In this document: one piece after another, positions 1 through 12,883 of the stretch
How the letters are laid out: each line of letters opens with the position of its first letter
How positions within the stretch are numbered: position 1 is the stretch's first letter
Assembly: GCA_964604675.1 (NCBI GenBank)
Contig: CAZSAT010000001.1
Span: 29,110 to 93,109 of the forward strand
Reading direction: 5' to 3'
Origin: an uncultured Enterobacterales bacterium
GTDB lineage: Bacteria > Myxococcota_A > UBA796 > CAJQPC01
DNA: 64,000 bases
Position numbers and translations under genes: made by a program
The notes under the pieces: generated by a model
What the model was told of the DNA's origin: nothing
Databases searched by the model: none
Seen by the model: only the letters and a program-made list of their open reading frames with translations

Positions 1-374
1 CGCCGCCGGAGGTCAACTACGTCGTCCGGATCGGCGACCAGCACCTGTTCTTCGGCGGCGACGCGCGCTTCTCCGACGCCTTCGAGGCCATCGCCGCGCG
101 CTTTCCGCCCATCGACGTCGCGCTGGTGCCGATCGGAGGGACCCGGATCTTCGGCACCCGCACCACGATGAGTCCGAAGGACGCAGCGCGGGCCTGCCGC
201 ATCCTGCGCGCCCGCCACGCCGTGCCGATCCACGAGGGTGGGGACTGGTTCTCGGCGCCCCCGGCGAGCATCCACCCCGGCCGAAACCGGCACTTCGTCA
301 AGGCGCTCGCCGAGGAGGCACCCGCCTGTGAAGCGGTCGTGCTGGCGCCCGGGGCGAGCGCCGACTTCGGCTGA
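1..374 (+). CDS. MBL-fold metallo-hydrolase, C-terminal fragment (5' end lies outside the window)
   Basis: The frame is open from the window edge to TGA at 372-374. The translation PPEVNYVVRIGDQHLFFGGDARFSDAFEAIAARFPPIDVALVPIGGTRIFGTRTTMSPKDAARACRILRARHAVPIHEG resembles the C-terminal half of UlaG-like Zn-dependent MBL-fold hydrolases. GC3 is high. Confidence 0.7.
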   Translation, partial: PPEVNYVVRIGDQHLFFGGDARFSDAFEAIAARFPPIDVALVPIGGTRIFGTRTTMSPKDAARACRILRARHAVPIHEGGDWFSAPPASIHPGRNRHFVKALAEEAPACEAVVLAPGASADFG

Positions 375-386
375 GAGCGATCTCTC

Positions 387-1139
387 CTACACGAGCCCGC
401 GCGCCATCGCCGCCCAGCGGCCGAGCAGGTAGCCGTCTCGGGGTTCTCCTCCGTCGGCTTCCGGGTGCCAGGCCCCTGCGACCACGCGCCCGCGCTCCAG
501 CGGTTCGGCGAGGCCCCGCGCGCCGGAGACGACTGGCCGCACGACGCGTTCTTCCGGGAGCCGGCCCGGACCCGCGAGCAGCTCCCCCGAGAAGCCGGCG
601 ACCAGCGCCACAGGCAGTCGACGGAGCCCCTCGCCGGTCCCCGAACCATCCACGCCGTCCCACGCCCCATCGGCCGAGCCGACCTCGAAACCGGTGGGGT
701 GGGGGAGCACCGCGCGGAGACCGGTGGCCTCGAACACCGCCACCGATCCGGACACCGCGCAGTGGACCACGCTCCACCCGTCGACCTGGGCGACCCGCGC
801 GCGCTGCAGCACAGCGACGGGCACCCCGCGCCCGTCGGGCAACACCACCACCCGGCCGGTGCAGGTCTCTGCCGAGGTGGTGAGCTTCAGCGCCGCCCGC
901 GGCACCAGCCACTGCCGCCAGCGCGCGTAGGCGGCGGCCATCGACCCGACGGCGACCCACACCCAGGCGGTCTCGACGTCGATCACCAGCCCGATGGCGA
1001 GGCCCGCGAAGCCGACCCAGAAGGCGAGCCGACGGGGCCCGGTCATCAGCGGACGAAGCGCGACGACCCCGCCCGGCGTGTAGGCGGCGTACAGCACCAC
1101 CCACAGCCACATCCAGGCGCTGGCTACGCCCGCGATCAC
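387..1139 (-). CDS. membrane protein of unknown function (N-terminal TM helices plus a soluble C-terminal domain)
   Basis: 250-aa ORF with a hydrophobic N-terminus (MIAGVASAWMWLWVVLYAAY..., AFWVGFAGLAIGLVIDV..., AWVWVAVGSMAAAY). The GTG start at 1139 overlaps the stop of the upstream gene (GTGA at 1136-1139). The plus-strand ORFs over this region are R/P/H-rich shadow ORFs. Confidence 0.65.
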   Translation of the reverse strand: MIAGVASAWMWLWVVLYAAYTPGGVVALRPLMTGPRRLAFWVGFAGLAIGLVIDVETAWVWVAVGSMAAAYARWRQWLVPRAALKLTTSAETCTGRVVVLPDGRGVPVAVLQRARVAQVDGWSVVHCAVSGSVAVFEATGLRAVLPHPTGFEVGSADGAWDGVDGSGTGEGLRRLPVALVAGFSGELLAGPGRLPEERVVRPVVSGARGLAEPLERGRVVAGAWHPEADGGEPRDGYLLGRWAAMARGLV

Positions 1140-2128
1140 AAGCGAGCCACCACGGCCCGCGCGTCGGCGGGAATGCCCCGCAGGAAGCCGCTCCTCCGTG
1201 TCCGCATGCAGTCGATCCCGACGAAGCCCACGCCTGGAAGCTCCGTCGAGAGGCCCTCGGTCTGCGCCGGCTCACCCGTGCCGAGCCCCGCCCAGCGCAG
1301 GTCCCGGCGGTAGCCGGTGGCCCAGACCACCCGGTCGGCGGGCACCTCGCCAGCCTCGGTGACCACTCCGGCGACGGTGAGGCCCACCGCACGCCCCACC
1401 TGGGACACCGTGCCCGCGGCGACGGCGCGATGCACGTCGTCGTCGACCACCGGGACGCCCCCCGAGCAACCGAGCACCCCAGGGGCCCAGCGCACCGGAA
1501 GGCCGGACACCCACCAGGCGAGCCGACCCCGAAGGCCGCGCCCGATCGAGGCGGGCCTTCCAGCCTGCCCCGACACCGTGACCTCCGCGCCCCGAGCGAG
1601 CAGCCGCGGCACCCACTCGGCGGCCGAGTTCCCGAAACCGACGACGACCACGCGCTCGCCGCGCTCGACGTCGGCGATCGACAAGGCCGAGCTGTGGCAG
1701 GCGGGTCCGTCGAAGCGCCCGGGCAGCTCGGGCACCCACGGGCGCTCGTAGGAGCCGGTGGCCAGCACCACACGCGGCGCCTCGTACACGTCGCCGGCCG
1801 TCAGCCGCCATCCCTCCCCCCGCCGCAACGCGGTGACCCGCTGCCCGAAGCGCACGTCGAGCCGCGCTCGGTCCGCGAACGCCCGCCAGGCCGCCAGGAC
1901 CTCCGAGGCCACCGCGCGCTCCGCGGCCCCCTCCACCCCCTCACCATCCGGCAGCCGGTCGTAGCGACGAAGCGACAGGCAGCGCATGTCCGGTCGCACC
2001 CGCGCCCAGAGCCCCCCGACCTCGCCCGTCGCCTCCAACACCACCGTGCGCCACCCACGCGCACGCCCGGCCGCGGCAGCGCTCAGCCCGCCCGGGCCGG
2101 CGCCCACCACGACGAGGTCGGCTCTCAC
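1136..2128 (-). CDS. FAD/NAD(P)-binding oxidoreductase, flavin-monooxygenase-like
   Basis: N-terminal dinucleotide-binding motif DLVVVGAGPGG. A second Rossmann motif, VVVVGFGNSAAE. An ATG-type motif, VVWATGYRRD. The GTG start overlaps the TPR gene stop (GTGA at 2125-2128). Confidence 0.85.
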   Translation of the reverse strand: MRADLVVVGAGPGGLSAAAAGRARGWRTVVLEATGEVGGLWARVRPDMRCLSLRRYDRLPDGEGVEGAAERAVASEVLAAWRAFADRARLDVRFGQRVTALRRGEGWRLTAGDVYEAPRVVLATGSYERPWVPELPGRFDGPACHSSALSIADVERGERVVVVGFGNSAAEWVPRLLARGAEVTVSGQAGRPASIGRGLRGRLAWWVSGLPVRWAPGVLGCSGGVPVVDDDVHRAVAAGTVSQVGRAVGLTVAGVVTEAGEVPADRVVWATGYRRDLRWAGLGTGEPAQTEGLSTELPGVGFVGIDCMRTRRSGFLRGIPADARAVVARL

Positions 2129-4017
2129 CGCGCGGCCTCCACCTGGAGGAGCAGCTGGCGCGCCTCGTCATCGTAAGGGTGGTTCTCGATGGACTTCTCG
2201 AGCAGCGCCTGCGCCTCGTCCAGGCGGCCCGCGTCCAGGCGCATCCGCGCGAGCTCGTTGAACTTCTTGTACTCGATGTCCGGGTTGATGGCGATGGCCC
2301 GCTCGAAGGCCTGCTGGGCGTCGTCGAGCTTGCCCTGCCGCAGGTAGACCAACCCGAGCCCCTCGTAGGGACAGGTGTAGGTCTCCGACTCCACCGCGAG
2401 CGCCGCCTGGAAACGCTCTTCCGCGGCCGCATCGTCGCCCTGGTTCAGCTTCACGAGCGCCAGCTCGGCCAGCGCGTATTGGTTGTCGGGGTCGACGGTG
2501 AGGACCCGCTCCAGCAAGGCCTCGGCGCCCTCGAAGTCGCCCAGGGCGTTCAGCGAGTTGCCCTTGCCGAGCAGCGCGAACAGGTCGGAGGGCTTGCGCG
2601 AGAGCACCGCGTCGAAGTGGGTGATGGCCCGTTCGTGCTGGGCCTGGTTGGCCGCGGACCACCCGAGCCCGGTCTGGGACATCCGGTCGAGCAGCCAGCC
2701 GAAGCCGAAGGGATCGTGGTTGGCGATGGTGGGCTCGGCGGGGTCCAGCGGCGAGAGCCCGCGGTAGGCCGAGAGCAGCTCCTCGGCCTCCGCGTAGCGC
2801 TTCTGGCCAAGGAGAACGTGCCCTCGCGCGACGCCGGCCCAGACCCCCGCCCCTTCCTCCTCGGCCTTGGCGATGGCCGCGGACGCATCGTCCCACCGGG
2901 TCTCCAGGACAGCCAGGAAGGCACTCAGCACCAGCAGCCCTGCGTGCTCGGGTGCGTTCTCGAGGCCCGCTGAGGTCAGCTGTGCAGCAGCGTCGAAGTC
3001 GTAGCGCTCGAAGGCGCGCACGGCGCTGTCGTGCAGGCTGGTGGCGGTCACCTCGCCCTCGTTCTGTTCCAGGCCACGGAGCAGCGCCTGGATCGCCTCG
3101 TCGCTCGAGAGCGCGGCCGCCCGGCGTGCGTAGATCAGCGCCTGCTCGTGCTCCCCGGCGGACTGGCTGGACAGGGCAGCATCCACCTGGGTGATCACCT
3201 TCGCGGGCTCGAGATCGGCCGCTCGGCGGGTCATGGCCGCCACGTCGGCGTCGCGACCGGCCTTCCGGTAGAGCACGCCGAGCGCCACGAAGGGGCACGC
3301 CACGATCTCCGTGGGGCCTTCGATGCGCTCTTCGGCGTCCACCAGCGCCACCGCCTCCATGAGCTCGGCCTCCGCCTCGGCGTCGCGTCCCTGACGCATC
3401 AACACCAGGCCCAGCTGTTCCTTCATGGCGAGCAGCCGTGACAGCTCCACATCCCGCTCGAAGTGGTGCTCGGCCGACAGGGTCTCCCAGTCCGCGACGG
3501 CGATCCGGAGCTCGGCCTCAGCCTCCTCGAGGCGGCCGAGCGCGGCCAACGAGCGACCGGCGTGGGCACGCGCGTGCGGTGAGCTCGGGTCCACCTCCAA
3601 CAGCGCCCGGTCGTACGCCAGCGCGGCCTCGTGGTCCTCGTTGAACTCGGCCCAGGAGCTGAGCATCTGCAGCGTGTAGGGGTCGGTCGGGTCGAGCTTC
3701 TGGGCCATGCGCAACCACGGCGCGGCGTTGGGCGCAAAGCTGTCCATCCCCAGCTCCCCGTGGTCGATGGCGGCGTGGCCCCGCTCCATGAGGACCTGCC
3801 CCATGAGCCGGAACACCACCGCACCCTCCTGCACCTCGAGCTGGGCGCGCACCAGCTCTTCCGCCTGGTCGAAGGCCGCCGGATCGCCGGTTCGCCCTCG
3901 TTCGAGGAGGTCCATCACGGTGACGCTCAGCTCATGGGGTTCGATCACGGCCACTGGTTCCGCCGGCGTCTGCTCGACCTGGCCGACGCACGCCCACCAC
4001 CACAAGAACCAGCTCAT
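2125..4017 (-). CDS. TPR-repeat protein, probable lipoprotein
   Basis: 630-aa ORF with repeated A/L/Y-rich 34-aa-type helical repeats (for example ALAELALVKLNQGDDAAAEERFQAALAV, GLGLVYLRQGKLDDAQQAFERAIAINP). The N-terminus is MSWFLWWWAC. The ATG overlaps the upstream stop (ATGA at 4014-4017). Confidence 0.85.
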   Translation of the reverse strand: MSWFLWWWACVGQVEQTPAEPVAVIEPHELSVTVMDLLERGRTGDPAAFDQAEELVRAQLEVQEGAVVFRLMGQVLMERGHAAIDHGELGMDSFAPNAAPWLRMAQKLDPTDPYTLQMLSSWAEFNEDHEAALAYDRALLEVDPSSPHARAHAGRSLAALGRLEEAEAELRIAVADWETLSAEHHFERDVELSRLLAMKEQLGLVLMRQGRDAEAEAELMEAVALVDAEERIEGPTEIVACPFVALGVLYRKAGRDADVAAMTRRAADLEPAKVITQVDAALSSQSAGEHEQALIYARRAAALSSDEAIQALLRGLEQNEGEVTATSLHDSAVRAFERYDFDAAAQLTSAGLENAPEHAGLLVLSAFLAVLETRWDDASAAIAKAEEEGAGVWAGVARGHVLLGQKRYAEAEELLSAYRGLSPLDPAEPTIANHDPFGFGWLLDRMSQTGLGWSAANQAQHERAITHFDAVLSRKPSDLFALLGKGNSLNALGDFEGAEALLERVLTVDPDNQYALAELALVKLNQGDDAAAEERFQAALAVESETYTCPYEGLGLVYLRQGKLDDAQQAFERAIAINPDIEYKKFNELARMRLDAGRLDEAQALLEKSIENHPYDDEARQLLLQVEAAR

Positions 4018-5090
4018 CGACGCACCAGGGCCAGGCCACGCTTCAGGGTCCAGCCCACCGCGAGGCCCGGCGACCCCGCCAGGGCCGGGTAGGCCTCACA
4101 CGGGGTGAAGCAGCCCCCGCAGGCGAGGGACGTTGCGCCCTCCCGCGCGGCGAGGGCCTCGGCCGAAGCCCAGGCAGCCGCCACGTCGAAGCCGTGGGCG
4201 CGCAGGTCGGCCACCGGCCGGTCCCACACGTGGCAGGGATAGAGCCACCCCTCGGCAGACACGAAGCACGCGCCGTGCATCGCCGCGCAGCTCATGCCCA
4301 GCTCTTCGCCGTCGAGGGTCGCCTGGAGGTTCACCAGGAAGGCCAGCTCCATCAGGTCGACCGGCGTGCGCGGGGGAAAGCGGCGTCGGGCCTGGTCGCG
4401 GACCAGCCGAGCCTGCGCGCCCCGATCGGCCTCCCAGGGCTCGTTGCCGAAGAACTGCGCCGAGCTCTGGTACAGGTTCCAGTGCCACGAGCGCTCGTCG
4501 AAGCCGCCCAGGTCGCTGTCCAGCGCCTGCCGGATCCGGTCGAGGGCGTGCTCGTTCTCGGGCCCCAGGGTGGTTCCCACGAAGGCGGAGACACCACGCG
4601 CCCGCAGCTCGCGGAAGGTGGCGAGCGCACGGCGGTAGGCCCCCTCGCGCCCTCGCATGCGGTCGTGAAGGGCTTCGTCGCCATCCACGCTCACGGTGAC
4701 GATGAGCTCGAGGTCGGGACGGGCGGCGGCGATGCGCTCGCAGGTGTCGACCACGCGGGACGTGAACCAGCCGTTGGTGGGGAAGTGCAGCACGCGCAGG
4801 GCGGGCGTGTTCGCGAGCACCTGCTCGAACACCTCGGCGTGGTCGCCACGGGCGAAGGGCTCGCCACCGGTCAGGTCGAGCCACACGAGCCGCGGCATGC
4901 CCGCCATCAGCCGACCGATCTCGACCGGGGTCAGCTCGCCGGCGGTGGGCATCTCCCAGCTCTTGCAGGTCCCACAGCGCTCGTTGCAGCGGCGGGTGAC
5001 CTGCACCACGGCACGCAAGGGGCTGTCGGGCCGGGCCAGCCAGCTCCGACCATAGGCGCGCACCAGGCCCAGGGCGGTCCGGGTCTTCAC
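4014..5090 (-). CDS. radical SAM enzyme with a SPASM/twitch-like C-terminal Cys cluster
   Basis: CxxxCxxC motif in VQVTRRCNERCGTCKSW. GGEPF motif in LDLTGGEPF. C-terminal CFVSAEGWLYPC and ACGGCFTPC (Cx2Cx3C). I trimmed the 506-aa track ORF to the GTG at 5090, which overlaps the GT2 stop (GTGA at 5087-5090). The upstream extension is R/P/G-rich and lies inside the GT2 gene. Confidence 0.85.
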   Translation of the reverse strand: MKTRTALGLVRAYGRSWLARPDSPLRAVVQVTRRCNERCGTCKSWEMPTAGELTPVEIGRLMAGMPRLVWLDLTGGEPFARGDHAEVFEQVLANTPALRVLHFPTNGWFTSRVVDTCERIAAARPDLELIVTVSVDGDEALHDRMRGREGAYRRALATFRELRARGVSAFVGTTLGPENEHALDRIRQALDSDLGGFDERSWHWNLYQSSAQFFGNEPWEADRGAQARLVRDQARRRFPPRTPVDLMELAFLVNLQATLDGEELGMSCAAMHGACFVSAEGWLYPCHVWDRPVADLRAHGFDVAAAWASAEALAAREGATSLACGGCFTPCEAYPALAGSPGLAVGWTLKRGLALVRR

Positions 5091-5800
5091 CCTTCGATCT
5101 TCCCGCGCACCATGCGCCGCAGGATGCGCAGCCCATCGCGCGCGGTGGCGAAGCCGCTCGCGCCGCGGCCGCGGGCCGAGCGCGTGACCGGCACCTCGAG
5201 CACCCGCCCGCCTCGGTTCAACACGTGCAGCGTGAGCTCGGTCTCGATCTCGTAGCGCACGGCCCGCAGCTCCTCGACCGCGAGGGCCTCCCGCCTCACC
5301 ACGCGGAAGCCCGCCTGGGTGTCGGTGATGCGGGAGCTGTAGAGCACGTTGAAGCAGCCGGTGAGCAGCCGGTTGCCCAGGTGGTTCTTGAAGGTGATGG
5401 CCCCGTCTTCGAGGGTGCCGATGAAGCGGCTGCCGATCACCATCGCCACGTCGTCCGTGAGCGCATCGAGCAGGTCGGGCAGCTCGCCGGGATCGTCCTG
5501 GCCGTCGGCGTCGATGAACGCGAGGATGGGGCACGTGGCGGCAGCCACACCCGCACGGAGGGCCTCGCCCTTGCCGCGGTTTTCACGGAGCACGAGCACG
5601 TCGTCGGCCACGCCACGTGCCGCTTCCGCGGTGCCGTCGCTCGAGCCGTCGTCGACCACGAGCACTTGACCCAGTGACGGCACGGCCGCCCGCGCCGCCG
5701 CGATGACCTGCGCGATGGTGGCCACCTCGTCGTGGGCCGGGATCACGAGGGAGACCTGGGGGCCCAGCGCGGCGACCCGGGCCGACACGGCGGTGCTCAT
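5087..5800 (-). CDS. family 2 glycosyltransferase (polyprenyl-phosphate sugar synthase-like, DPM1/ArnC type)
   Basis: VSLVIPAHDEVATIAQVI, VLVVDDGSSDGT, NRGKGEALRAG and FIDADGQDDP (DxD region) are typical of short GT2 enzymes. Confidence 0.9.
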   Translation of the reverse strand: MSTAVSARVAALGPQVSLVIPAHDEVATIAQVIAAARAAVPSLGQVLVVDDGSSDGTAEAARGVADDVLVLRENRGKGEALRAGVAAATCPILAFIDADGQDDPGELPDLLDALTDDVAMVIGSRFIGTLEDGAITFKNHLGNRLLTGCFNVLYSSRITDTQAGFRVVRREALAVEELRAVRYEIETELTLHVLNRGGRVLEVPVTRSARGRGASGFATARDGLRILRRMVRGKIEG

Positions 5801-5891
5801 GGGCCGAAGCTACCACGGACGGCCTGGTGGCTTGAGCGCCGACTCGTGCTCCTCGTCGAGGCCCTCGCCGTCCCGTGGTAGCAACGAGCCG

Positions 5892-7385
5892 ATGCGACGA
5901 CGCCTCGTCCTGATCGTCTGCGCGCTGCTCCTCGGCGCCTTCGGACTGCTGCGCTTCGACGGCCCCAGCCGCGGGTACTGGGACACCTACATCACGGTGC
6001 CCGCGATGTTCATGGCCGGGCAGCCGGTGGACCTGGTCCGGATCGATGGCACGCCGAGGTTCGACTACGAGCTCTCCGGACGGCTGCCCGACGACACCTT
6101 CGACCCGGACAGCTTCGGCATCTCGTCGAAGGACCAGCGCATCGGCACGGGCATCCTCTTCGCCGCACCCTTCGCCGTGTTCTCGATGGCGGCCTTCCGC
6201 TGGATCTACGCCGCGAGCTGGGTGCTGCTCTTCTTCTTCGCCTCGAAGGCGTTCACCGGCCTCGGCCTGCGGTGGAGCGCCGCGCTCGCCGCGTCGGCGT
6301 GGCTGGTGCTCAACCCCTTCTCGCTCTACCTCGACCGCCTGAACGGCAACCTCTTCGGCCTGGTGCTGCTCGCCTTCCTCTGGCTGCTGCTGAGCGAGAA
6401 GAAGCCGAGCTGGTGGCTGGCCGGAGCGGTCTACGGCATCGTGGGCGGGGTGCGGAACGAGGCGATCGTGGTCGCGCCGCTCTTCCTCGGCTTCGCGTGG
6501 CACCACGAACGCCAGGTGCTCGGCACGCTCAAGGCCCTGGGCACGGCCGTGGCGGCGGCCTTCGTGACCATCCTGCCGGTGTTGATCTGGAACGACTTCG
6601 CCTACGGACAGGCGATCATCCACCCCAGCCAGGTCGCGCACCTGGAGGGCTTCCGACCCACCTTCCCGCACACCTGGTTCGGCCTGGGTGAGCCCTTCGA
6701 GTTCAACGGCCTGCTGAACTGGCCCTTCCACACCGAGCTCGTCCGCACGCCGCACTTCGCGTTCCCGACCTTCGTCCACTGGTCCCTGGTGACCGTGAAG
6801 AGCCTGGGCCTGCTGCTGGTCCCGGTGGCGGCGGTCGGGGGGGGCGTGCTCCTCGTCAAGCGGCCCTTGCACGGCGTCCTGTTGGGCTTCTGGTACCTGA
6901 TCTTCTGCGCGCTCTTCGCGTTCCAGGAGAACTGGGAGGAGCTCAAGCAGACCTTCATGGCGCTCCACCTCTTCCCCCTGGCCGCGGCCCTCGCGGCCGG
7001 GCTGGACTGGGTGACCGCGTCCGTGAAGCGCTGGGTGCCCATCGTCGCTGCGGGTGCCGTGCTGTGGGGCGTGGTCCTGGGGCTCAGGACCGTGGACGTG
7101 CCGGCCGACGAGCGCTGGTACGTGCGCTTCCCGCACGCCGAGGCCAACGACGCGGGCCTCGACGAGCTGCCCGTGGAGCGGCGGAAGGACTGGCAGTTCT
7201 TCTACACCCGGGAGACCCCCGCGGAGATCGCTCGAGAGAAGCGCGACATGACGACCGTCCGGCCCTGGCCCACCCTCTACCGGCCGTTCCACTGGGGAGG
7301 CGCCGAGGCCCTGGCCGCGATGGTCGAGGAGCCCAGCACCCGCGAGCTCACCACCCTGGCGGTGTGGAGCTACATCTACGAATAG
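5892..7385 (+). CDS. polytopic integral membrane protein, possible GT-C-type glycosyltransferase
   Basis: I trimmed the 560-aa track ORF to the ATG at 5892 (MRRRLVLIVCALLLGAFGLL). There are at least 10 hydrophobic segments and a soluble C-terminal tail. The gene is divergent from the GT2 gene. The GT-C assignment is inferred from topology and context only. Confidence 0.65.
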   Translation: MRRRLVLIVCALLLGAFGLLRFDGPSRGYWDTYITVPAMFMAGQPVDLVRIDGTPRFDYELSGRLPDDTFDPDSFGISSKDQRIGTGILFAAPFAVFSMAAFRWIYAASWVLLFFFASKAFTGLGLRWSAALAASAWLVLNPFSLYLDRLNGNLFGLVLLAFLWLLLSEKKPSWWLAGAVYGIVGGVRNEAIVVAPLFLGFAWHHERQVLGTLKALGTAVAAAFVTILPVLIWNDFAYGQAIIHPSQVAHLEGFRPTFPHTWFGLGEPFEFNGLLNWPFHTELVRTPHFAFPTFVHWSLVTVKSLGLLLVPVAAVGGGVLLVKRPLHGVLLGFWYLIFCALFAFQENWEELKQTFMALHLFPLAAALAAGLDWVTASVKRWVPIVAAGAVLWGVVLGLRTVDVPADERWYVRFPHAEANDAGLDELPVERRKDWQFFYTRETPAEIAREKRDMTTVRPWPTLYRPFHWGGAEALAAMVEEPSTRELTTLAVWSYIYE

Positions 7386-9052
7386 GGGCGCTCGACCAGG
7401 AAGGGGCCCAGCGCCATCACGTCGATGGCGCCGCGCTCGAACACCCGCAGCGCGTCCTCGGCGCTCGCGACGATCGGCTCCCCGTGCACGTTGAAGCTCG
7501 TGTTGAGCACCGCCGGTTCGCCGGTGGCCTCCTCGAAGAGCCGCAAGATGCGGTGGTAGCCGGGATCCGGTTCCGGATGCACGACCTGGGGCCGCGCCGT
7601 GCCGTCGACGTGGACGACGGCCGGGCAGACCGCCTGCAGCGCGTCGGTGGTGTCGAGCGACACCGTCATGTAGCGGGCGGTGCGCGCGATCCCGGGCCCG
7701 TAGCCGCGGTAGCAACGCTCGGCGTGCTCCACCGCGGTCGCCGGCGCGAAGGGCATGAACTCCGAGCGCTCCAGCCGCGCGTTCAAGCGGCCGGGCAGGG
7801 TCTCGTCGGAGGCACGCCCCAGGATGCTTCGGTGGCCGAGCGCCCTCAGCCCATACTCCATCCGACCGCTCACACGCGCCACGATGCGCCCGGCCACGAG
7901 GTGCTCGACCACCGCCGCGTCCAGGTCGTTGGGGCGGGTGGCTCGGATGCCAGCGATCTCCAAGGCCCTTCCCGCGGAGGCCTCGGTCACCTCGGTGCCC
8001 AGGTACACGTGGTCGAGCGGGGCCCCGCGGCCACCCTCCACGGCGCCCTGCCAGTGGAGCGCGGCACCGGCCGAGATGCCCTGATCGTTCATCGCGGGGT
8101 GCACGAACAGCCCGTCGACCTCGGGCAGGGCCCACAAGCGCTGGTTCACGAGCACGTTGGCGAACACGCCGCCGGCCAGGACCAGGTGACGCCGCCTGGT
8201 CTCCTGCAGCGCATGCTGGACAAAGGCGACCACCACGTCCTCGAGCCGCTGCTGGGCCGCCGCGCAGATGTCGTCGCGGCTGTGGCCGGCGAGCTCCGCG
8301 AACACCCCGCGCTTCCTGGAGCGGGTGAGCGCCCCGGGCAGCTCGAAGGCGCGTTGATCGGGGCGCAGCCGGATGAGGCGCTCCATCAGCGGGTACGCGC
8401 GGGCCGCGTCGCCCCGAGCACTCAGGCCGGTGACCTTGCCGGCGTCGAGCACCCGGAAGCCCAACAACTGCGTGATCTCCCCGTAGAACTGGCCCGGCGA
8501 GTGCACGGCGTCCGAGCCCCAGAGCGGCTCGCACCGGCCCGCTCGGCAGTCGAAGACCCGGGCCGAGAAGCCGTCGCCGAAGTTGTCGATGGTCACGCCG
8601 AGCGCGTCGTCGAAGTCGGAGGTCAGGTACGCGCTGGCGCAGTGCGCGCTGTGGTGGTCGACGATGGGGACGCCGCGCCCGAAGCGCCGCGCCAGCAGCC
8701 GACGGTTCAGGGCCTCTACCCCTCGCGCCAGCGGTCCGCCCTGGTGGAAGCGCGCCTGGAGCGCCACCCACGCCTTGTGCTCGGGGCCGAACAGGTCGTG
8801 CTCTCCCGCGATGACCCCGGCGCCGAGGAGGCGCGGCAAGACGTGGTACCGGTTGCCGGCCACGACCCCGTCCAGGTCGCCGAAGGTGACCCCGGCCAAG
8901 GCGAGGCAGGCGTCGACCGCGCGCTCCGGGAAGCCGCCCTGGAACTTCTGGCGCGACAGCCGCTCCTCGGCGACGGCCGCGACGATCTCCCCATCGCGCA
9001 CGACCGAGGCGTTGGCGTTGGTGTCCTCGTGCACCGCCAGGACCAGGCTCAA
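7376..9052 (-). CDS. carbamoyltransferase, NodU/CmcH family
   Basis: LSLVLAVHEDTNANASVVRDGEIVAAVAEERLSRQKFQGGFPERAV matches the family N-terminus. The C-terminal TSFNVHGEPIV motif is present. The proposed TTG start at 9052 is preceded by GGAGG 5 nt upstream and overlaps the upstream stop (TTGA at 9049-9052). The start codon is uncertain. Confidence 0.82.
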   Translation of the reverse strand: MSLVLAVHEDTNANASVVRDGEIVAAVAEERLSRQKFQGGFPERAVDACLALAGVTFGDLDGVVAGNRYHVLPRLLGAGVIAGEHDLFGPEHKAWVALQARFHQGGPLARGVEALNRRLLARRFGRGVPIVDHHSAHCASAYLTSDFDDALGVTIDNFGDGFSARVFDCRAGRCEPLWGSDAVHSPGQFYGEITQLLGFRVLDAGKVTGLSARGDAARAYPLMERLIRLRPDQRAFELPGALTRSRKRGVFAELAGHSRDDICAAAQQRLEDVVVAFVQHALQETRRRHLVLAGGVFANVLVNQRLWALPEVDGLFVHPAMNDQGISAGAALHWQGAVEGGRGAPLDHVYLGTEVTEASAGRALEIAGIRATRPNDLDAAVVEHLVAGRIVARVSGRMEYGLRALGHRSILGRASDETLPGRLNARLERSEFMPFAPATAVEHAERCYRGYGPGIARTARYMTVSLDTTDALQAVCPAVVHVDGTARPQVVHPEPDPGYHRILRLFEEATGEPAVLNTSFNVHGEPIVASAEDALRVFERGAIDVMALGPFLVERPYS

Positions 9053-9312
9053 GCGGTCCTCCGACGCCAGAGCACCAGGCCACAGACCGCGTTCAAGCCG
9101 GTGGCCACGCCGATCACCAACCCGACGTGCACGTGGGTCGCGAAGGCCCAGGCCGTGCAGAAGCTCGCCAGCGGCACGACCAGCAGCGACAGCGTGAAAC
9201 CGCCAGCCAGGCGCATCGCCGGCGACCACGCGCGCTCCGCCACCGCCGCGATAAGCACACCGGGCAGGACGAAGGCGTAAGCGAGCGCTGCGAGCTGCAG
9301 GAGAAGGGTCAT
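9049..9312 (-). CDS. small membrane protein (about 3 TM helices)
   Basis: MTLLLQLAALAYAFVLPGVLIAAV...LSLLVVPLASFCTAWAF...VGLVIGVATGLNAVCGLVLWRRR. GC3 is high. It is translationally coupled to the downstream carbamoyltransferase. An alternative GTG start lies at 9333. Confidence 0.6.
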   Translation of the reverse strand: MTLLLQLAALAYAFVLPGVLIAAVAERAWSPAMRLAGGFTLSLLVVPLASFCTAWAFATHVHVGLVIGVATGLNAVCGLVLWRRRTA

Positions 9313-10225
9313 GGTGGAGGACGTGGCTATCACGCGCGCTTCCCACCCCGTGGACCGCGGCGCCCTCGACCACTGGCTCCGGAGCGCGGTGGAGCATCGG
9401 GGGTGCGTGCGATCGTGGGTCCACCCGGTCGAGCCGGGGTACGACTACCCGGAGGCCGCCGTGCTCTGGCTGTCCTGGGCGGCCTGGCGCGGCGAAGCGC
9501 ACACCGAACAAGCCCGGCGCGTGGCCGCCCGGCTGCTCGAGGACCTCACGTCGCAGGGCTCCCTGGGCCGCGGCGGGCAGCGCTACCTGTTCGACAGCTG
9601 CCTGGGCCTGCACGCCCTGGTGAGGGCTGACGTGGACCTCCCCTTCGACCGGATCGTCGAGGGCCTGGCGCGCTTCGAGGCCCCCGTGCAGCCCAGGGCG
9701 GGCGCCCGTTGGTCCGAGCGGTGGACCGGCCACATGGACCGCGCTGCAGCGCTGCTCCTCCAGGCGGCGCACCAACGGCGCTCCGAGCCCGGTGTTCGCC
9801 TCGCCCGACGCCTCCGGGAACGGGCGAGCGAGACCAGCGACTACGTGCATGCTCTCGCCTACGCGGCCGAGGGCGAGCTGCTCTTTCGCGCCCTGGGGGA
9901 GCCGGCCCGCCGCGCGCCCGAGCGCTTCGCCGCCCAGCTCGCCGAGCTCCAGCGCGCCGACGGTGCCCTGCCGGCCTGGATCGACGGCCGCGAGGGGCCG
10001 CGGCTCGACGCCACCGCCCAGGCCGTGCGCCTCTGGGCCCTGATCGACCGTGACCACTACGACGCTCCGATCCAGGCGGCGCTGGGCGTCCTCGCCACCT
10101 GGCAGCACCGGACCGGCGGCATCTGCTACGACCCCCGTGGTCATGTGAACACCTGGACCTCGATCTTCGCCGACCAGGCGCTGGTCTGGGCGGAGGGCGG
10201 AGCGAACGGGCTTGCCTGGATCTGA
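9311..10225 (+). CDS. hypothetical protein, possibly an alpha/alpha-toroid (prenyltransferase/terpene-cyclase-like repeat) fold
   Basis: 304-aa ORF with high GC3. It contains repeated Q-x-x-D/T-G-like motifs (LQRADGALPAW, WQHRTGGICYD, SQGSLGRGG). The fold assignment is inferred from these motifs only. Confidence 0.6.
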   Translation: MVEDVAITRASHPVDRGALDHWLRSAVEHRGCVRSWVHPVEPGYDYPEAAVLWLSWAAWRGEAHTEQARRVAARLLEDLTSQGSLGRGGQRYLFDSCLGLHALVRADVDLPFDRIVEGLARFEAPVQPRAGARWSERWTGHMDRAAALLLQAAHQRRSEPGVRLARRLRERASETSDYVHALAYAAEGELLFRALGEPARRAPERFAAQLAELQRADGALPAWIDGREGPRLDATAQAVRLWALIDRDHYDAPIQAALGVLATWQHRTGGICYDPRGHVNTWTSIFADQALVWAEGGANGLAWI

Positions 10226-11825
10226 GGCCGTGCTCGGCCTCTGGGACGGCCACGGCGCGAGCGTCGCGGTGGTCGCGGAGGGGCGGCTCGTCTTCGCCCT
10301 GGCGGAGGCTCGCCCGAGCCGACGCAAGCGCTTCAGCGGCTTCCCCGAACAGGCCCTCGCCGCCGCGATGCGCTGGACCGACCAGGCCGGGTTGAGCGTG
10401 CACCGCGTGGCGCTCGCCGGGGCGAGGGGTCGGAGCCTCCACCGCCTGGCCGAGCCGCTCTACACGGGGAGCGATCCACACCGCGAGCCGTTGGGGCGCA
10501 CCAGCCTGGCGGCCATGGGCTGGGAGAACGGCGTGGCGCGGTCGCCGGCCGGGCACATCGACGCTCGAATCGGGCGCGCCGTGGTCCAGCGGCGGCTCGC
10601 GGCCGCGGGACTGCGCGCCCCCCTGATCACCGTCGACCACCACGACGCGCACGCCTGGTCCGCGCGCTTCGGGCGAGCGGAGCGCGCGCTGGTGGTGACC
10701 GCCGACGCCTACGGGGAGGGGCGCTCCGCGACCGTGCGGCGGGCAGACACCATGGACGAGGTGCTCGCGAGCACCGACGCGCGCTTCGGCCTCGCGCTGC
10801 TCTTCGGGGCGGTCACCGTGGGGCTCGGCTTCCAGGAGGGCGACGAGGGCAAGGTCATGGGCCTGGCCGCGCACGGCGACCCCGAGGCCGCAGCACCCTT
10901 CGACGCGCTCTTCGAGGGGGGGGTCGAGCCGCACCTCCGGCGTCCGCTCTCGCGTCGACGCGTCCAGCAGCTCCTCGGCGCGCTCTCCCGCGAGGACGCG
11001 GCGGCCGGTGCGCAGGCCTGTGTGGAGCGTCGTGCAGCCGCCTGGATCGCGTCCGAGGTGGAGCGGAGCGGCTGCGGACGGCTGTTGCTCGCCGGGGGCC
11101 TCTTCGCGAACGTCCGGCTCAACCAGAGGCTGGCGAGCCTTCCGGGCATCGACGGCATCGAGGTGTTCGTCGCGATGGGCGACGAAGGGCTGTCCGCCGG
11201 TGCGGCCCACCGGGTCTGGGCGGCTCGCCACGGCCCCGCTGTGTGCCGTGATCCGCGCCTCGGCGTGGCCCACGTGCTCCCGGACCTCGGCGTGCCCACC
11301 ACCACCGCGCGCGTCGCCGAGCACCTCGCGTCGGAACGCGTGGTGTGCCGCTACAGCGGACGCGAAGCCTTCGGTCCCCGCGCGCTGGGCAACCGCTCGA
11401 TCCTCTTCGCAGCGAGGCCGGCGGTCGCGGCCCGCGTGAACGCGGCGCTGGGGCGGGACCCGATCATGGCCTTCGCTCCGGTGATGACGGCGGAGGCCGC
11501 TCCTGCGTTGGTCGAGGGGCACGCCGGTCACCTGACCGACATGACCATCACCGCACGGGCGACCGACCTCCTGCGCCAGGTGTGCCCGGCCGCGGTGCAC
11601 CTCGACGGAAGCGTGCGCCCGCAGGTCGTCCACAGGGCCCAGCAGCCCGCACTCCACGAGCTGCTCACCGCCGCCGCCGAGCGCGGGCTGCCGGCGCTCG
11701 TCAACACCAGCTTCAACCTCCACGGCGAGCCGATCGTGCACACCCCCACCGATGCGCTGCGCACCTGGGAGGCGAGCGGCCTGGACGTGCTGTTGCTGGG
11801 GGAGCGCGAGCTCGGGGTGGCCTGA
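10212..11825 (+). CDS. carbamoyltransferase, NodU/CmcH family (second copy)
   Basis: VLGLWDGHGASVAVVAEGRLVFALAEARPSRRKRFSGFPEQAL and the C-terminal TSFNLHGEPIV motif. The track start is TTG at 10212. An in-frame GTG at 10230 is an equally plausible start. Confidence 0.82.
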   Translation: MPGSEAVLGLWDGHGASVAVVAEGRLVFALAEARPSRRKRFSGFPEQALAAAMRWTDQAGLSVHRVALAGARGRSLHRLAEPLYTGSDPHREPLGRTSLAAMGWENGVARSPAGHIDARIGRAVVQRRLAAAGLRAPLITVDHHDAHAWSARFGRAERALVVTADAYGEGRSATVRRADTMDEVLASTDARFGLALLFGAVTVGLGFQEGDEGKVMGLAAHGDPEAAAPFDALFEGGVEPHLRRPLSRRRVQQLLGALSREDAAAGAQACVERRAAAWIASEVERSGCGRLLLAGGLFANVRLNQRLASLPGIDGIEVFVAMGDEGLSAGAAHRVWAARHGPAVCRDPRLGVAHVLPDLGVPTTTARVAEHLASERVVCRYSGREAFGPRALGNRSILFAARPAVAARVNAALGRDPIMAFAPVMTAEAAPALVEGHAGHLTDMTITARATDLLRQVCPAAVHLDGSVRPQVVHRAQQPALHELLTAAAERGLPALVNTSFNLHGEPIVHTPTDALRTWEASGLDVLLLGERELGVA

Positions 11826-11833
11826 TTCGACCC

Positions 11834-12883
11834 TCAGCCGTGCACGACGCGGACTCCGGGGGCCGACAGGAGACCGTGCACCGCCTCCTGCGCGGCGTCG
11901 AGCTCCAGCTCCTTCATGCAGCGGAAGTGCAGGCGCGGGCAGAAGGGCCGCCCGTAGAAGTGGCACGGGGCGCAGGGGACGTCTCCGAAGAGCACCGCGT
12001 GCCCCGAGAAGTCGAACTGCTCGGGGTCGGTGGAGCCGAAGAAGGCGAGGGTCGGGATCCCCAGGCCCCGGGCGATGTGCATCGGTCCGCTGTCGTTCGC
12101 GACGAAGGCATCGAAGAGCGAGATCATGCCCGCCCAGATCGGCAGCTTCGCCTCGACGAACACCGCGCCGGGTGCCTCGCGCACGATCTGCTGGCAGAGC
12201 GGATACTCGTCGGGGCTCCCGCTCACCACGACCTGACGGCCGCTCGCGACCAGCTCGCGGGCCAGGCCGCCGAAGCGCTCGACGGGCCAACGCTTGGTCG
12301 GCCACCCCGCACCCGGTGAGAGGCCCACCATAGGCTCCGAGGTGCACACACGCGCGGCTTCGAGGCGCTCCCTCGCACGGTCCTGGTCGTCGGGCCCCAA
12401 CCAGTAGCTCAGCCGGCCGCGCTCGAGCTTCCGTCCCACCAGCTCCTCGACCGCGAGGTGGAAGCGGTCCGCGAGCCACATGCCCCCCCGCCACCGCTTC
12501 AGGCCCAGCCGCACGGGCAGCCCGTCCTGCCAGCGACGCTTCGTCCAGATCGCGCGGCGGGTGCGCGGCAACAGCGGCCGGAGCGCCCGGCACCGCAGGC
12601 TGCCGTGAAGATCGAGCAGCGCGTCGAAGCCCAGCGCGCGCAGCCGGCGCGCGAAGGAGACCACCCCCTCGTCGCGCCCGATCACGATCACGTCGTGCAC
12701 GTGCGGGCTGTGCCGGACCAGCCCGTCGAAGCCCTCCCGCACCGCGTACACGATCTCGGTCTGCGGCCACGCGGTGTGGAGCGCGGCGATCGCGGGGGAC
12801 GTGAGCACGATGTCGCCCACGGAGCTGAAGCGCAGCACCACCACCCGCTCCGGGGCGCCGGCCTGGACCAGCGCCGTGCTCAC
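11834..12883 (-). CDS. family 9 glycosyltransferase (LPS heptosyltransferase-like)
   Basis: RVVVLRFSSVGDIVLTSPAIAAL, GAGWPTKRWPVERF and FVANDSGPMHIARGLGIPTLAFFG are GT9 hallmarks. I trimmed the ORF to the GTG at 12883, which overlaps the upstream stop (GTGA at 12880-12883). Confidence 0.87.
   Translation of the reverse strand: MSTALVQAGAPERVVVLRFSSVGDIVLTSPAIAALHTAWPQTEIVYAVREGFDGLVRHSPHVHDVIVIGRDEGVVSFARRLRALGFDALLDLHGSLRCRALRPLLPRTRRAIWTKRRWQDGLPVRLGLKRWRGGMWLADRFHLAVEELVGRKLERGRLSYWLGPDDQDRARERLEAARVCTSEPMVGLSPGAGWPTKRWPVERFGGLARELVASGRQVVVSGSPDEYPLCQQIVREAPGAVFVEAKLPIWAGMISLFDAFVANDSGPMHIARGLGIPTLAFFGSTDPEQFDFSGHAVLFGDVPCAPCHFYGRPFCPRLHFRCMKELELDAAQEAVHGLLSAPGVRVVHG

Follow-up and report, generated by a model that had tools for sequence, protein, structure and literature searches.

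The window, the 64,000-nucleotide stretch of DNA that was analysed, carries five minus-strand genes between positions 5800 and 387, encoding successively a GT2 glycosyltransferase, a radical SAM enzyme (rSAM), a TPR-repeat protein, a flavoprotein and a 250-aa membrane-anchored protein (Table 1). Consecutive genes are joined by 4-nt start/stop overlaps (GTGA at 5087-5090, ATGA at 4014-4017, GTGA at 2125-2128 and GTGA at 1136-1139). An earlier note on this DNA had described these genes and overlaps; all the coordinates hold, and an identical public contig (ENA k141_1333251) has independent gene calls that agree on the five genes and on the divergent 497-aa gene, with its start at 5892. The reading frames are backed by (i) the GC content at third codon positions, 0.90-0.92 for four of the five genes, and (ii) a 150-nt frame plot, which backs all five frames, including that of the rSAM from its start at 5090, with weaker support across 387-750, the C-terminal part of the 250-aa protein. 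The start of the rSAM corresponds to the alignment column at which its homologues begin, that of the flavoprotein is followed by a GxGxxG motif at residues 9-14, and the N-terminus of the 250-aa protein is common to its homologues. A sister lineage keeps the same overlaps at three junctions. The overlaps indicate an operon, yet they are not exceptional, being common in this genome: they occur at 6 of the 12 co-directional junctions of a 21-kb locus (L005). Promoter-like, terminator-like, Rfam and tRNA features were looked for and none was found; likewise, the intergenic region 5801-5891 showed no sigma-70-like consensus.

Table 1. Features of the operon and of its partner genes, in window coordinates.
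Feature	Coordinates	Strand	Basis or remark
MBL-fold metallohydrolase, C-terminal 123 aa	3..374	+	Lactamase_B_2, B_3; convergent with operon
Membrane-anchored protein, 250 aa	387..1139	-	no Pfam/NCBIfam family
Flavoprotein, 330 aa, FMO/ArsO/CzcO-like	1136..2128	-	Pyr_redox_3, FMO-like
TPR-repeat protein, 630 aa	2125..4017	-	many TPR Pfam families
Radical SAM enzyme (rSAM), 358 aa	4014..5090	-	PF04055
GT2 glycosyltransferase, 237 aa	5087..5800	-	first gene of five-gene operon
GT2/GT-C divergent intergenic region, 91 bp	5801..5891	.	presumed shared promoter region
GT-C-fold polytopic membrane glycosyltransferase, 497 aa	5892..7385	+	AlphaFold2 + Foldseek; divergent from operon
CmT1, NodU/CmcH/TobZ-family O-carbamoyltransferase, 558 aa	7376..9052	-	Carbam_trans_N + Carbam_trans_C above cut-offs
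Small membrane protein, 87 aa, about three hydrophobic helices	9049..9312	-	called on public contig
Cytoplasmic (alpha/alpha)6-toroid protein, 304 aa	9311..10225	+	AlphaFold2, Foldseek
CmT2, second O-carbamoyltransferase, 537 aa	10212..11825	+	Pfam, NCBIfam, synteny

Conserved partners outside the interval covered by the earlier note had been missed: two carbamoyltransferases, a toroid protein, a small membrane protein and an MBL hydrolase. CmT1 scores 96 bits against NodU, under the cut-off; characterised members of this family (NodU, TobZ) carbamoylate sugar hydroxyls. The stop of the 87-aa gene overlaps the CmT1 start by 4 nt, and a homologue precedes CmT1 in 14 loci; the 87-aa protein matches no Pfam family and may serve as a membrane anchor or as a flippase subunit. 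The CmT2 gene overlaps the toroid gene by 14 nt. The MBL-fold gene runs off the window; in full it encodes 247 residues with an intact HxHxDH motif (HLHADH) and no signal peptide. The cluster is bordered by Kdo hydroxylase, GT9 and GT2 genes.

The operon GT2 matches PF00535 (91 bits), and its best PDB match is 5mlz, the Dol-P-Man synthase (DPMS) of P. furiosus, over residues 15-229, followed by ArnC. In NCBIfam it reaches 131 bits against AglJ, under that family's cut-off, and 62 bits against PpgS (cut-off 370). It is presumed from these similarities to be a polyprenyl-phosphate sugar synthase of the DPM1/AglJ/PpgS-like type, which agrees with its earlier assignment as a short DPM1/ArnC-type enzyme. 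The GT-C-like nature proposed for the polytopic product of the divergent gene is borne out by a confident AlphaFold2 model (pLDDT 89): all 24 top Foldseek matches in the PDB are GT-C enzymes or GT-C-like subunits, including AglB, STT3, ArnT, ALG3, Emb, AftD, PMT and a GPI-transamidase subunit (chain 8imx_U). No curated family includes the protein; PF13231 or PF09594 is present in some homologues, and an invariant YWDTY motif (D31) follows TM1 (alignment A2).

With moderate confidence, we read the region as a periplasmic, lipid-carrier-dependent GT2/GT-C glycosylation system with unusual donor-tailoring enzymes. The position of the invariant Asp of the GT-C, in the first periplasmic loop, argues for this reading. 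Against it, the GT2 scores under every equivalog cut-off and shows in its sequence no transmembrane helices such as GtrB, ArnC and archaeal DPMS have, the Foldseek matches of the GT-C are modest (E-values 1e-3 to 0.3, TM-scores of about 0.4-0.47), and no flippase of the GtrA, SMR or MATE type is recognisable in the cluster.

The rSAM has the motif C35x3C39x2C42 and five invariant C-terminal cysteines (C268, C286, C324, C327 and C331; alignment A1) in a predicted twitch/SPASM-like auxiliary-cluster region; many homologues carry PF13186 (SPASM). PF04055 is its only Pfam match, all NCBIfam matches lie far under their cut-offs (BlsE, 26 bits for a cut-off of 400), and searches of both collections found no B12-binding domain and no Hpn family above cut-off. 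Among solved structures, SkfB, CteB, BlsE (E=2.5e-7) and MoaA come closest; they match mainly the core domain, CteB matching over most of the length. The earlier remark that the rSAM and the flavoprotein are part of no readily named lipid-linked glycan pathway stands, as neither falls in any curated equivalog family. The presence of the peptide maturases SkfB, CteB, ScmE and MftC among the best NCBIfam and PDB likenesses, together with the frequency of SPASM domains in RiPP enzymes, would fit a peptide or protein maturation system, with the rSAM as a RiPP-type maturase, the GT2 as the enzyme that glycosylates the peptide and the TPR protein as the substrate-binding component. We consider this very improbable: none of the maturase matches reaches its cut-off and most are confined to the core of the rSAM; the genes examined include no precursor peptide, RRE domain, leader protease or ABC exporter, the conserved small ORF encodes a polytopic membrane protein, and the partners that are conserved, GT2, GT-C and O-carbamoyltransferase, are all sugar enzymes.

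Gene neighbourhoods were compared across 80 other rSAM genome loci, 49 of them with full flanks, genes within 10 kb being counted as nearby. Among the fully flanked loci, a GT2 orthologue is near the rSAM in 43, the toroid in 36, a carbamoyltransferase in 17 (and in 12 of 18 distant loci), and the window-type GT-C and the MBL hydrolase in 13 each, always both. The 20 loci that have the MBL hydrolase are precisely those that have the window-type GT-C (20/20), and both genes recur in an independent metagenome lineage (L100). The GT2 is directly adjacent to the rSAM in 24 of the 80 loci. A second, distantly related GT-C-like family (hhalign, E=7e-6) replaces the window-type GT-C in other Myxococcota; one of two mutually exclusive GT-C-like families lies beside the rSAM in 45/80 loci. 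In an acidobacterial locus (Vicinamibacterales, L073), rSAM, GT2, carbamoyltransferase and PMT_2 GT-C genes form a co-directional overlapping operon; a Desulfobulbaceae locus (L077) has in succession GT2, a protein of 572 aa that matches PMT_2 weakly, rSAM and carbamoyltransferase. L076 and L080 have GT9-like genes directly beside the rSAM. Two results count against the glycosylation reading: carbamoyltransferase, MBL hydrolase and window-type GT-C are missing within 10 kb in most Nannocystaceae and Polyangia loci, and KdoO is found in none of the 80 loci, the LPS-gene neighbourhood not being conserved.

The genes encoding the TPR protein, the flavoprotein and the 250-aa protein are absent beside the rSAM in all 80 other loci; they follow it only in this lineage and in one sister lineage, which keeps the five-gene order at 58-78% protein identity. 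The proposal of a conserved gene order thus stands for that sister lineage and fails elsewhere, and the idea of five or six genes as one conserved unit has to be abandoned: only the GT2 and the rSAM, among the operon genes, belong to the widely conserved set. This set (GT2, rSAM, GT-C, carbamoyltransferases and others) is described by no curated family or paper within the literature searched, and seems so far undescribed.

The best-scoring Pfam TPR stretches of the TPR protein lie mostly in residues 450-630. Its sister-lineage counterpart has 318 residues, of which only the last 130 are common (77% identity). The N-termini (MSWFLWWWAC in the window, MIWIWLLAC in the sister lineage) share a Cys after a very short hydrophobic stretch, and the protein is plausibly a lipoprotein; its gene is a probable lineage-specific accessory. 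The flavoprotein matches Pyr_redox_3 (81 bits) and FMO-like (33 bits) in Pfam and reaches 89 bits against ArsO (cut-off 425), pointing to a short class-B-like, FMO/ArsO/CzcO-like enzyme. The 250-aa protein, which has no Pfam or NCBIfam match, has 53 representative homologues at E<=1e-3, with the conserved motifs RQWL, VHCxLARS, LPHxTGF, WDGVDG and RWAA (alignment A5). The flavoprotein gene lies directly upstream of the 250-aa homologue in every metagenome locus with upstream sequence, and the pair forms a separate two-gene cassette in 12/12 other loci.

The operon might be a composite without a single pathway, in which the GT2 and rSAM (with the GT-C) form one unit, the cassette and the TPR protein are functionally unrelated passengers, and the carbamoyltransferases work with the neighbouring LPS-core genes and not on the GT2-rSAM product; carbamoylation of core heptose is known in Pseudomonas. 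The varied neighbours of the cassette elsewhere (TatC, HEAT, SDR, B12-rSAM), the poor conservation of the TPR gene even in the sister lineage, the commonness of 4-nt overlaps genome-wide and the position of the carbamoyltransferases beside GT9 and KdoO in the window are all in keeping with such an arrangement. We nevertheless judge it quite unlikely, as carbamoyltransferases abut rSAM-GT2 in distant phyla (L073, L077-L079, L085, L086), in loci showing no KdoO/GT9 match to the window proteins, as the cassette in L100 again lies beside carbamoyltransferase, GT-C (41% identity) and MBL genes, and as the sister lineage retains the five-gene order.

The toroid (AlphaFold2 model, pLDDT 95) belongs to the terpenoid-cyclase/prenyltransferase superfamily: its Foldseek matches comprise monodomain class II terpene cyclases, drimenyl-PP synthase, GH105/GH88 enzymes and RabGGT-beta, and its profile matches the prenyltransferase/squalene-oxidase repeat. 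This superfamily suits a terpenoid substrate equally well, which counts against the glycosylation reading. The product could then be a membrane glycolipid rather than a glycan donor: the GT2 would glycosylate a lipid alcohol (polyprenol, cyclised terpenoid or hopanoid-like lipid), the rSAM would remodel the lipid-bound sugar or the isoprenoid, the toroid would be a class II cyclase-like enzyme and the carbamoyltransferases would decorate the polar head. There are precedents for a glycosyltransferase followed by an rSAM acting on a lipid-bound hexose in HpnI/HpnK/HpnJ (hopanoid cyclitol ether) and archaeal Cds; HpnJ and archaeal calditol synthase contract a lipid-linked hexose, and HpnH adds 5'-deoxyadenosyl to an alkene. 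Class II terpene cyclases are the top Foldseek matches of the toroid by E-value, although some glycosidases score higher by TM; its profile also matches SQHop_cyclase_C proteins, and Nannocystaceae and Polyangia most often show the rSAM-toroid-GT2 triad. However, the toroid has no DxDD motif and a single invariant Asp (in FDTC), its profile similarity covers the generic repeat and not the catalytic region, the weak likenesses to HpnH (34 bits) and HpnB (35 bits) are far under the cut-offs of 225 and 379, and no squalene or terpene synthase was found among the window ORFs tested. Moreover, a purely cytoplasmic pathway leaves the GT-C-type transferase in 45/80 loci unexplained, and the distant-phylum operons keep the GT-C and lack the toroid. 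We therefore regard a terpenoid or membrane-lipid head-group pathway as possible but unlikely. The window system also differs from Hpn and Cds by its GT-C and carbamoyltransferases, by the absence of a hopene cyclase in the neighbourhood and by its rSAM without B12-binding domain.

Under the GT2/GT-C glycosylation reading, the conserved set probably builds an unusual modified sugar and attaches it to the cell envelope. We infer the sugar, the carrier, the acceptor, the radical reaction and every chemical step from the observed gene structure, folds, families and co-occurrence. [quoted passage not shown] The rSAM would then remodel the lipid-linked sugar by abstracting a hydrogen atom, the candidates being an oxidation, an epimerisation, a decarboxylation or a ring contraction. 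One or two NodU-type carbamoyltransferases would O-carbamoylate the sugar, with the 87-aa protein perhaps anchoring CmT1 to the membrane. The cytoplasmic MBL hydrolase and the toroid, which may bind the polyprenyl tail, would perform or assist further steps. The completed donor would be flipped and the GT-C would move the sugar onto an envelope acceptor. As genes for Kdo hydroxylase and heptosyltransferase lie next to the cluster, lipid A or the inner core of the LPS is a plausible acceptor in this organism. The flavoprotein/250-aa cassette and the TPR protein would be accessories co-transcribed with GT2-rSAM only in this and the sister lineage, perhaps contributing an oxygenation step and a scaffold in the periplasm.

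The same scheme underlies ArnC/ArnD/ArnE-F/ArnT, which places L-Ara4N on lipid A, and the related FlmF2/NaxD/FlmK and LgmA/LgmC/LgmB systems: a GT2 loads undecaprenyl phosphate, a cytoplasmic enzyme tailors the sugar and a periplasmic transfer step by a GT-C follows. The window GT2 has ArnC, and the window GT-C has ArnT, among its solved-structure matches, and LPS-core genes are adjacent in the window. In contrast, tailoring would involve an rSAM, NodU-type carbamoyltransferases, an MBL hydrolase and a toroid instead of a deformylase or deacetylase, and the window differs from these systems in its GT2 without transmembrane helices, its GT-C outside curated families and the lack of an SMR-type flippase in the cluster. 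The mycobacterial PpgS (Rv3631)/Rv3779 pair, which serves to place GalN on arabinogalactan, likewise combines a short soluble GT2 of about 240 aa with a GT-C and has a small membrane protein encoded nearby, as in the window; it has no radical SAM enzyme or carbamoyltransferase, and the window GT2 is far under the PpgS cut-off. BtrN and BlsE, which act on sugars, are also small rSAM enzymes with an auxiliary-cluster (twitch) domain, and the C-x17-C...C-x2-C spacing of the window rSAM resembles that of the BtrN twitch ligands; however, the similarity is confined to the rSAM core and their substrates are soluble. ArnD or NaxD offers a precedent for cytoplasmic tailoring of lipid-linked donors before GT-C transfer. 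Auxiliary epimerases offer another, within three-component extracytoplasmic systems such as GtrA/GtrB/Gtr* and PPPRS/MATE/GT136 (Kelly et al. PNAS 2024, PMC11127046). Compared with PPPRS/MATE/GT136, the window has a DPM1-like GT2 as donor synthase instead of a PRPP-dependent synthase, its auxiliaries are of the radical SAM and carbamoyltransferase types, and no MATE/GtrA flippase was identified. It shares with the three-component systems the concept of a lipid-linked monosaccharide donor, a flippase, a GT-C and donor-diversifying auxiliaries (PMC11127046).

At the level of gene organization, the five minus-strand genes encoding a GT2 glycosyltransferase, a radical SAM protein (rSAM), a TPR protein, a flavoprotein and a 250-aa protein are joined by 4-nt overlaps, the coding-strand sequence at the four junctions being GTGA, ATGA, GTGA and GTGA. 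The GC content at the third codon position, 0.90–0.92 in four of these genes in a window of ~72% G+C, supports the frames, and a 150-nt frame plot backs all five of them, including that of the rSAM from its start at 5090; support was less clear only in the final 360 nt of the fifth gene. Three of the starts are further backed by (i) rSAM homologues that begin at the same alignment column, (ii) the position of the first GxGxxG motif of the flavoprotein (residues 9–14) and (iii) the N-terminus common to the homologues of the 250-aa protein. Independent gene calls on a public metagenome contig of 182 kb with identical sequence gave exactly the same five genes and the divergent gene encoding a 497-aa membrane protein. 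The junction sequences, the coding statistics and the independent calls thus bear out the overlapping five-gene operon described in the earlier note. The 4-nt overlaps indicate an operon, though they are not unusual in themselves, as they are common in this genome, at 6/12 co-directional junctions in the 21-kb locus L005. Scans for promoter-like, terminator-like, Rfam and tRNA signals found none.

Coordinates of the features discussed (window positions)
Feature	Position	Strand	Remarks
MBL-fold hydrolase	3-374	+	partial gene
Fifth protein of the operon	387-1139	-	250 aa
Flavoprotein	1136-2128	-	330 aa
TPR protein	2125-4017	-	630 aa
Radical SAM protein (rSAM)	4014-5090	-	358 aa, GTG start
GT2	5087-5800	-	237 aa
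Window-type GT-C	5892-7385	+	497 aa
First carbamoyltransferase	7376-9052	-	
87-aa protein	9049-9312	-	
Toroid protein	9311-10225	+	304 aa
Second carbamoyltransferase	10212-11825	+	
GT9 heptosyltransferase	11834-12850	-	beside cluster
Kdo hydroxylase	12880-13800	-	PF11004
GT2 of LPS-type operon	13752-14495	-	
MATCAP homologue	32093-33172	+	
Second radical SAM protein	58133-59272	+	

A genome scan with two rSAM motifs, taking one genome per species, yielded 80 loci, mostly from Myxococcota (Nannocystaceae, Polyangia, Plesiocystis pacifica and Paraliomyxa), with distant loci (31–40% identity) in Acidobacteriota, Desulfobulbaceae, Bdellovibrionota and Omnitrophota; all window proteins were searched against these loci by tblastn. 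Neighbours within 10 kb of the rSAM gene were counted where it is flanked by ≥5 kb on each side, a condition that 49 loci satisfy. A GT2 orthologue was present in 43 of these 49 loci, the 304-aa toroid protein in 36, a carbamoyltransferase in 17, and the window-type GT-C and the MBL-fold hydrolase in 13 each, whereas the TPR, flavoprotein and 250-aa genes were found in none (0/49). The recurrent core therefore consists of the GT2 and the rSAM. Slightly more than half of the loci examined add a GT-C to this core, and a carbamoyltransferase is found with it chiefly in the distant phyla and in the window clade. The 304-aa protein is added in Myxococcota, and the MBL hydrolase, the second carbamoyltransferase and the 87-aa membrane protein are added in the window clade, the MBL hydrolase and the window-type GT-C being present in exactly the same 20 loci. 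In a Vicinamibacterales locus (L073), the genes for the rSAM, the GT2, a carbamoyltransferase and a PMT_2-type GT-C follow one another in this order, overlapping and co-directional, and a Desulfobulbaceae locus (L077) is arranged as GT2, 572-aa protein weakly matching PMT_2, rSAM and carbamoyltransferase. The five-gene order facing the GT-C does recur in a relative, one sister lineage (rSAM 70% and GT-C 83% identical) with 4-nt overlaps at three junctions; relatives at ~60% rSAM identity are without the TPR, flavoprotein and 250-aa genes. The six-gene neighbourhood hence does not stand as one conserved unit, and the earlier interpretation is supported in part. The finding is better described as a conserved GT2–rSAM–GT-C–carbamoyltransferase module, all of whose conserved genes fall within positions 1–11825, with lineage-specific additions, the TPR gene and a flavoprotein cassette.

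Eleven loci (L008–L011, L013, L015, L027, L069, L074, L084 and L085) lie on high-GC contigs titled 'uncultured Enterobacterales', 'Rickettsiales' or 'Bifidobacteriaceae'; on MAGs carrying a Myxococcota-type cluster, such titles are probably wrong taxonomic labels. In a Minicystis sp. locus (L002, 1629–7707 and 12946–19280), the rSAM–toroid–GT2 triad lies inside a radical-SAM-rich cluster, to which 13–18 other Nannocystaceae/Polyangia loci have similar matches. Its contents include a B12-binding rSAM, a 612-aa double rSAM and a 1004-aa fusion of an rSAM with a Gfo/Idh/MocA oxidoreductase, and hint at an extensive redox chemistry of sugars or cyclitols.

The GT2 protein, in whose sequence no transmembrane helix is seen, matches PF00535 above cut-off. 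Its closest solved relative is the Dol-P-Man synthase of P. furiosus (DPMS, 5mlz; residues 15–229), followed by ArnC; its best curated match, AglJ, scores 131 versus a cut-off of 325, and the Dol-P-hexose transferase and PpgS matches are weaker, all being below cut-off. The sole Pfam match of the rSAM is the radical SAM core (PF04055, 46.6 bits versus a cut-off of 29.5). The three cysteines of its CX3CX2C motif (C35, C39 and C42) are invariant in the homologue alignment, as are five C-terminal cysteines (C268, C286, C324, C327 and C331), versus seven in the 7-Cys SPASM motif and four in twitch domains. The window rSAM is without a match to PF13186 (SPASM) at E≤0.01, but many of its homologues do match. 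Among solved relatives, SkfB, BlsE and MoaA align chiefly with the core and CteB over most of the length. The family comprises >300 unannotated homologues. Searches of Pfam and NCBIfam returned no equivalog for the rSAM, the GT2, the flavoprotein, the GT-C, the toroid protein or the 250-aa protein, and no NCBIfam model came near its cut-off with the rSAM, which, like the flavoprotein, falls outside the curated equivalog families. The operon was likewise said to differ from the hopanoid HpnH/I/J genes, and a hopanoid reading is indeed rejected on scores far below the equivalog cut-offs (HpnH, 34 bits versus 225; HpnB, 35 bits versus 379); HpnJ was absent from the best 25 of 40 NCBIfam families, and the rSAM has no B12-binding domain. 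A mycofactocin-like reading was also rejected, the MftC and MftF matches being weak and below cut-off, with no homologues of MftA, B, D or E.

The window-type GT-C has no Pfam match. Its AlphaFold2 model (pLDDT 89) was compared with solved structures using Foldseek, and the top 24 matches were all GT-C enzymes or GT-C-like subunits, among them AglB, STT3, ArnT, ALG3, EmbA/B, AftD, Pmt and the GPI-transamidase subunit chain 8imx_U, at modest E-values (1e-3 to 0.3); the GT-C-like nature previously suggested for this protein is thereby upheld. GT-C enzymes hold a catalytic acid at a position after the first transmembrane helix, and in the homologue alignment an invariant YWDTY motif (D31) directly follows TM1. 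The model and the alignment thus agree with a transferase of the GT-C fold whose first extracytoplasmic loop bears an acidic residue, and PMT_2 or GT87 domains occur in some of its homologues. Twenty-nine other loci from Myxococcota encode, beside the rSAM, an alternative polytopic protein of ~570 aa with an HDEG motif after TM1. Direct BLASTP of the window-type GT-C against a 584-aa Nannocystaceae membrane protein gave no match, but profile-profile comparison ties the two families together (probability 84%, E=7e-6). One of these two GT-C-like families is present in 45/80 loci, and both together in none. In ~15 Nannocystaceae/Polyangia loci, a single-pass protein of ~160–180 aa with no family assignment is translationally coupled to the alternative protein (L001, 7535–8080; L002, 7731–8207).

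Both carbamoyltransferases match Carbam_trans_N and Carbam_trans_C above cut-off and fall far below the NodU equivalog (96 and 81 bits versus 1000). The stop codon of the 87-aa gene overlaps the start of the first carbamoyltransferase gene. The 87-aa and toroid genes lie back to back with overlapping start codons (9310–9313; starts at 9312 and 9311, respectively), leaving no intergenic promoter space, and one of the two starts may therefore be miscalled. The AlphaFold2 model of the toroid protein (pLDDT 95) has an (alpha/alpha)6 toroid fold, matching monodomain class II terpene cyclases, drimenyl-diphosphate synthase and RabGGT-beta, and also GH105/GH88 hydrolases. Its profile matches SQHop_cyclase_C proteins (E=3e-5) via a repeated LxxxQxxDGG motif and not the catalytic site. 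The DxDD(T) motif of class II cyclases is absent from the family, whose only invariant Asp in the region is D95, in FDTC; we considered D95 as the equivalent of the cyclase acid and dropped it, because the profile hit falls on a motif that matches several repeats. The protein has no signal peptide and is treated as a cytoplasmic member of the terpenoid-cyclase/prenyltransferase superfamily that may bind a polyprenyl chain or act on a sugar. This superfamily keeps alive the main rival explanation, namely that the cluster serves a terpenoid or glycolipid head-group pathway instead of supplying a glycan donor. The simplest reading, one that uses all conserved parts, is that of a putative GT2/GT-C periplasmic glycosylation system in which the toroid protein, the MBL hydrolase, the carbamoyltransferases and the rSAM would act in the cytoplasm to tailor a lipid-linked sugar donor.

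We infer every chemical step of this glycosylation pathway. In its fullest form, which we put forward tentatively and with more doubt than conviction, the rSAM would be an obligate partner of DPM1-like GT2s and GT-Cs in Myxococcota, Acidobacteriota, Desulfobacterota and Bdellovibrionota, and would radically remodel a polyprenyl-phosphate-linked sugar (for example by ring contraction, decarboxylation or C-H oxidation) that is then O-carbamoylated and placed on the envelope, amounting to an undescribed class of donor tailoring and an undescribed sugar. None of the Pfam families of dedicated flippases (GtrA, ArnE/F SMR, MATE) was found among the cluster genes, and the three-helix 87-aa protein, which has no family assignment, would, from its sequence, be the only flippase candidate. 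HpnI/HpnJ and archaeal calditol synthase are chemical precedents for radical SAM chemistry on a lipid-bound hexose. The closest known kinds of system are the three-component Arn, Gtr and pentofuranose systems (for the latter two, PMC11127046); from all of these, HpnI/HpnJ and calditol synthase included, the gene set differs in its enzymes, and it has no recognisable flippase. No description of the rSAM/GT2/GT-C/carbamoyltransferase set was found in the literature searched, a weak negative given that subscription journals were mostly outside its coverage. GT2/GT-C periplasmic glycosylation shapes lipid A charge, O-antigen serotypes, teichoic acids and mycobacterial walls, and the tailoring of lipid-linked donors known to us comprises deacylation, epimerisation and flavin/SDR redox. 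If the proposal is true, an rSAM and carbamoyltransferases in such a system would extend this chemistry, lead one to expect a new envelope sugar in several phyla that have been little studied, and give a function to a large unannotated rSAM family and two GT-C-like families. The idea is open to direct testing in three carriers that can be cultivated, Plesiocystis pacifica SIR-1 (L018), Paraliomyxa miuraensis SMH-27-4 (L044) and Pseudenhygromyxa sp. WMMC2535 (L001).

As for the lineage-specific genes, the TPR protein of the sister lineage is only 318 aa long and has only its final 130 residues in common with that of the window. Both proteins bear a very short hydrophobic N-terminal stretch ending in Cys, which is compatible with a lipoprotein, albeit one with an atypically short signal. 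The flavoprotein is predicted to be a short enzyme with two dinucleotide domains (Pyr_redox_3, 81 bits; a partial FMO-like match, 33 bits) and carries, besides the N-terminal GxGxxG, the motifs GFGNSA (around residue 164) and ATGY. It lies outside the ArsO equivalog because it scores 89 bits versus a cut-off of 425; an arsenosugar reading based on weak ArsO and TIGR04283 matches was rejected, since all of these fall well short of their cut-offs and ars genes are absent. Members of the 250-aa family (53 representatives) have hydrophobic helices at the N-terminus and share the conserved motifs RQWL, VHCxLARS, LPHxTGF, WDGVDG and RWAA. When metagenomes were scanned with a narrower alignment of this family, a flavoprotein homologue directly preceded the 250-aa homologue in 12/12 loci with upstream sequence, in otherwise varied contexts. 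The flavoprotein and the 250-aa protein thus form an independent cassette. At one of these loci (L100), genes for a carbamoyltransferase, a GT-C (41% identity) and an MBL protein once more lie next to the cassette, which weakly suggests a functional link to the module. In the giant protein P0351 (2194 aa) there are 19 repeated stretches that residues 84–137 of the 250-aa protein match, and this segment may therefore be an independent small domain.

A GT2–Kdo hydroxylase–GT9 operon (11834–14495, minus strand) directly adjoins the cluster; its predicted products indicate that the window organism makes a Ko-containing LPS inner core. GT9-like genes abut the rSAM gene in two distant loci. Across the 80 loci, the searches beside the rSAM gene detected the Kdo hydroxylase nowhere and GT9-like proteins only as three weak matches, and the adjacency to LPS genes is therefore not general. 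Beyond 15 kb, the ORFs examined in the window are of housekeeping type (a HEAT-repeat protein, a histidine kinase, proteases and EF-G), apart from a second rSAM (PF04055, 73 bits) that is unrelated to that of the operon, with only ~22–30% identity. The window also encodes a bacterial homologue of MATCAP, the microtubule-associated tyrosine carboxypeptidase (PF08014, 89 bits).
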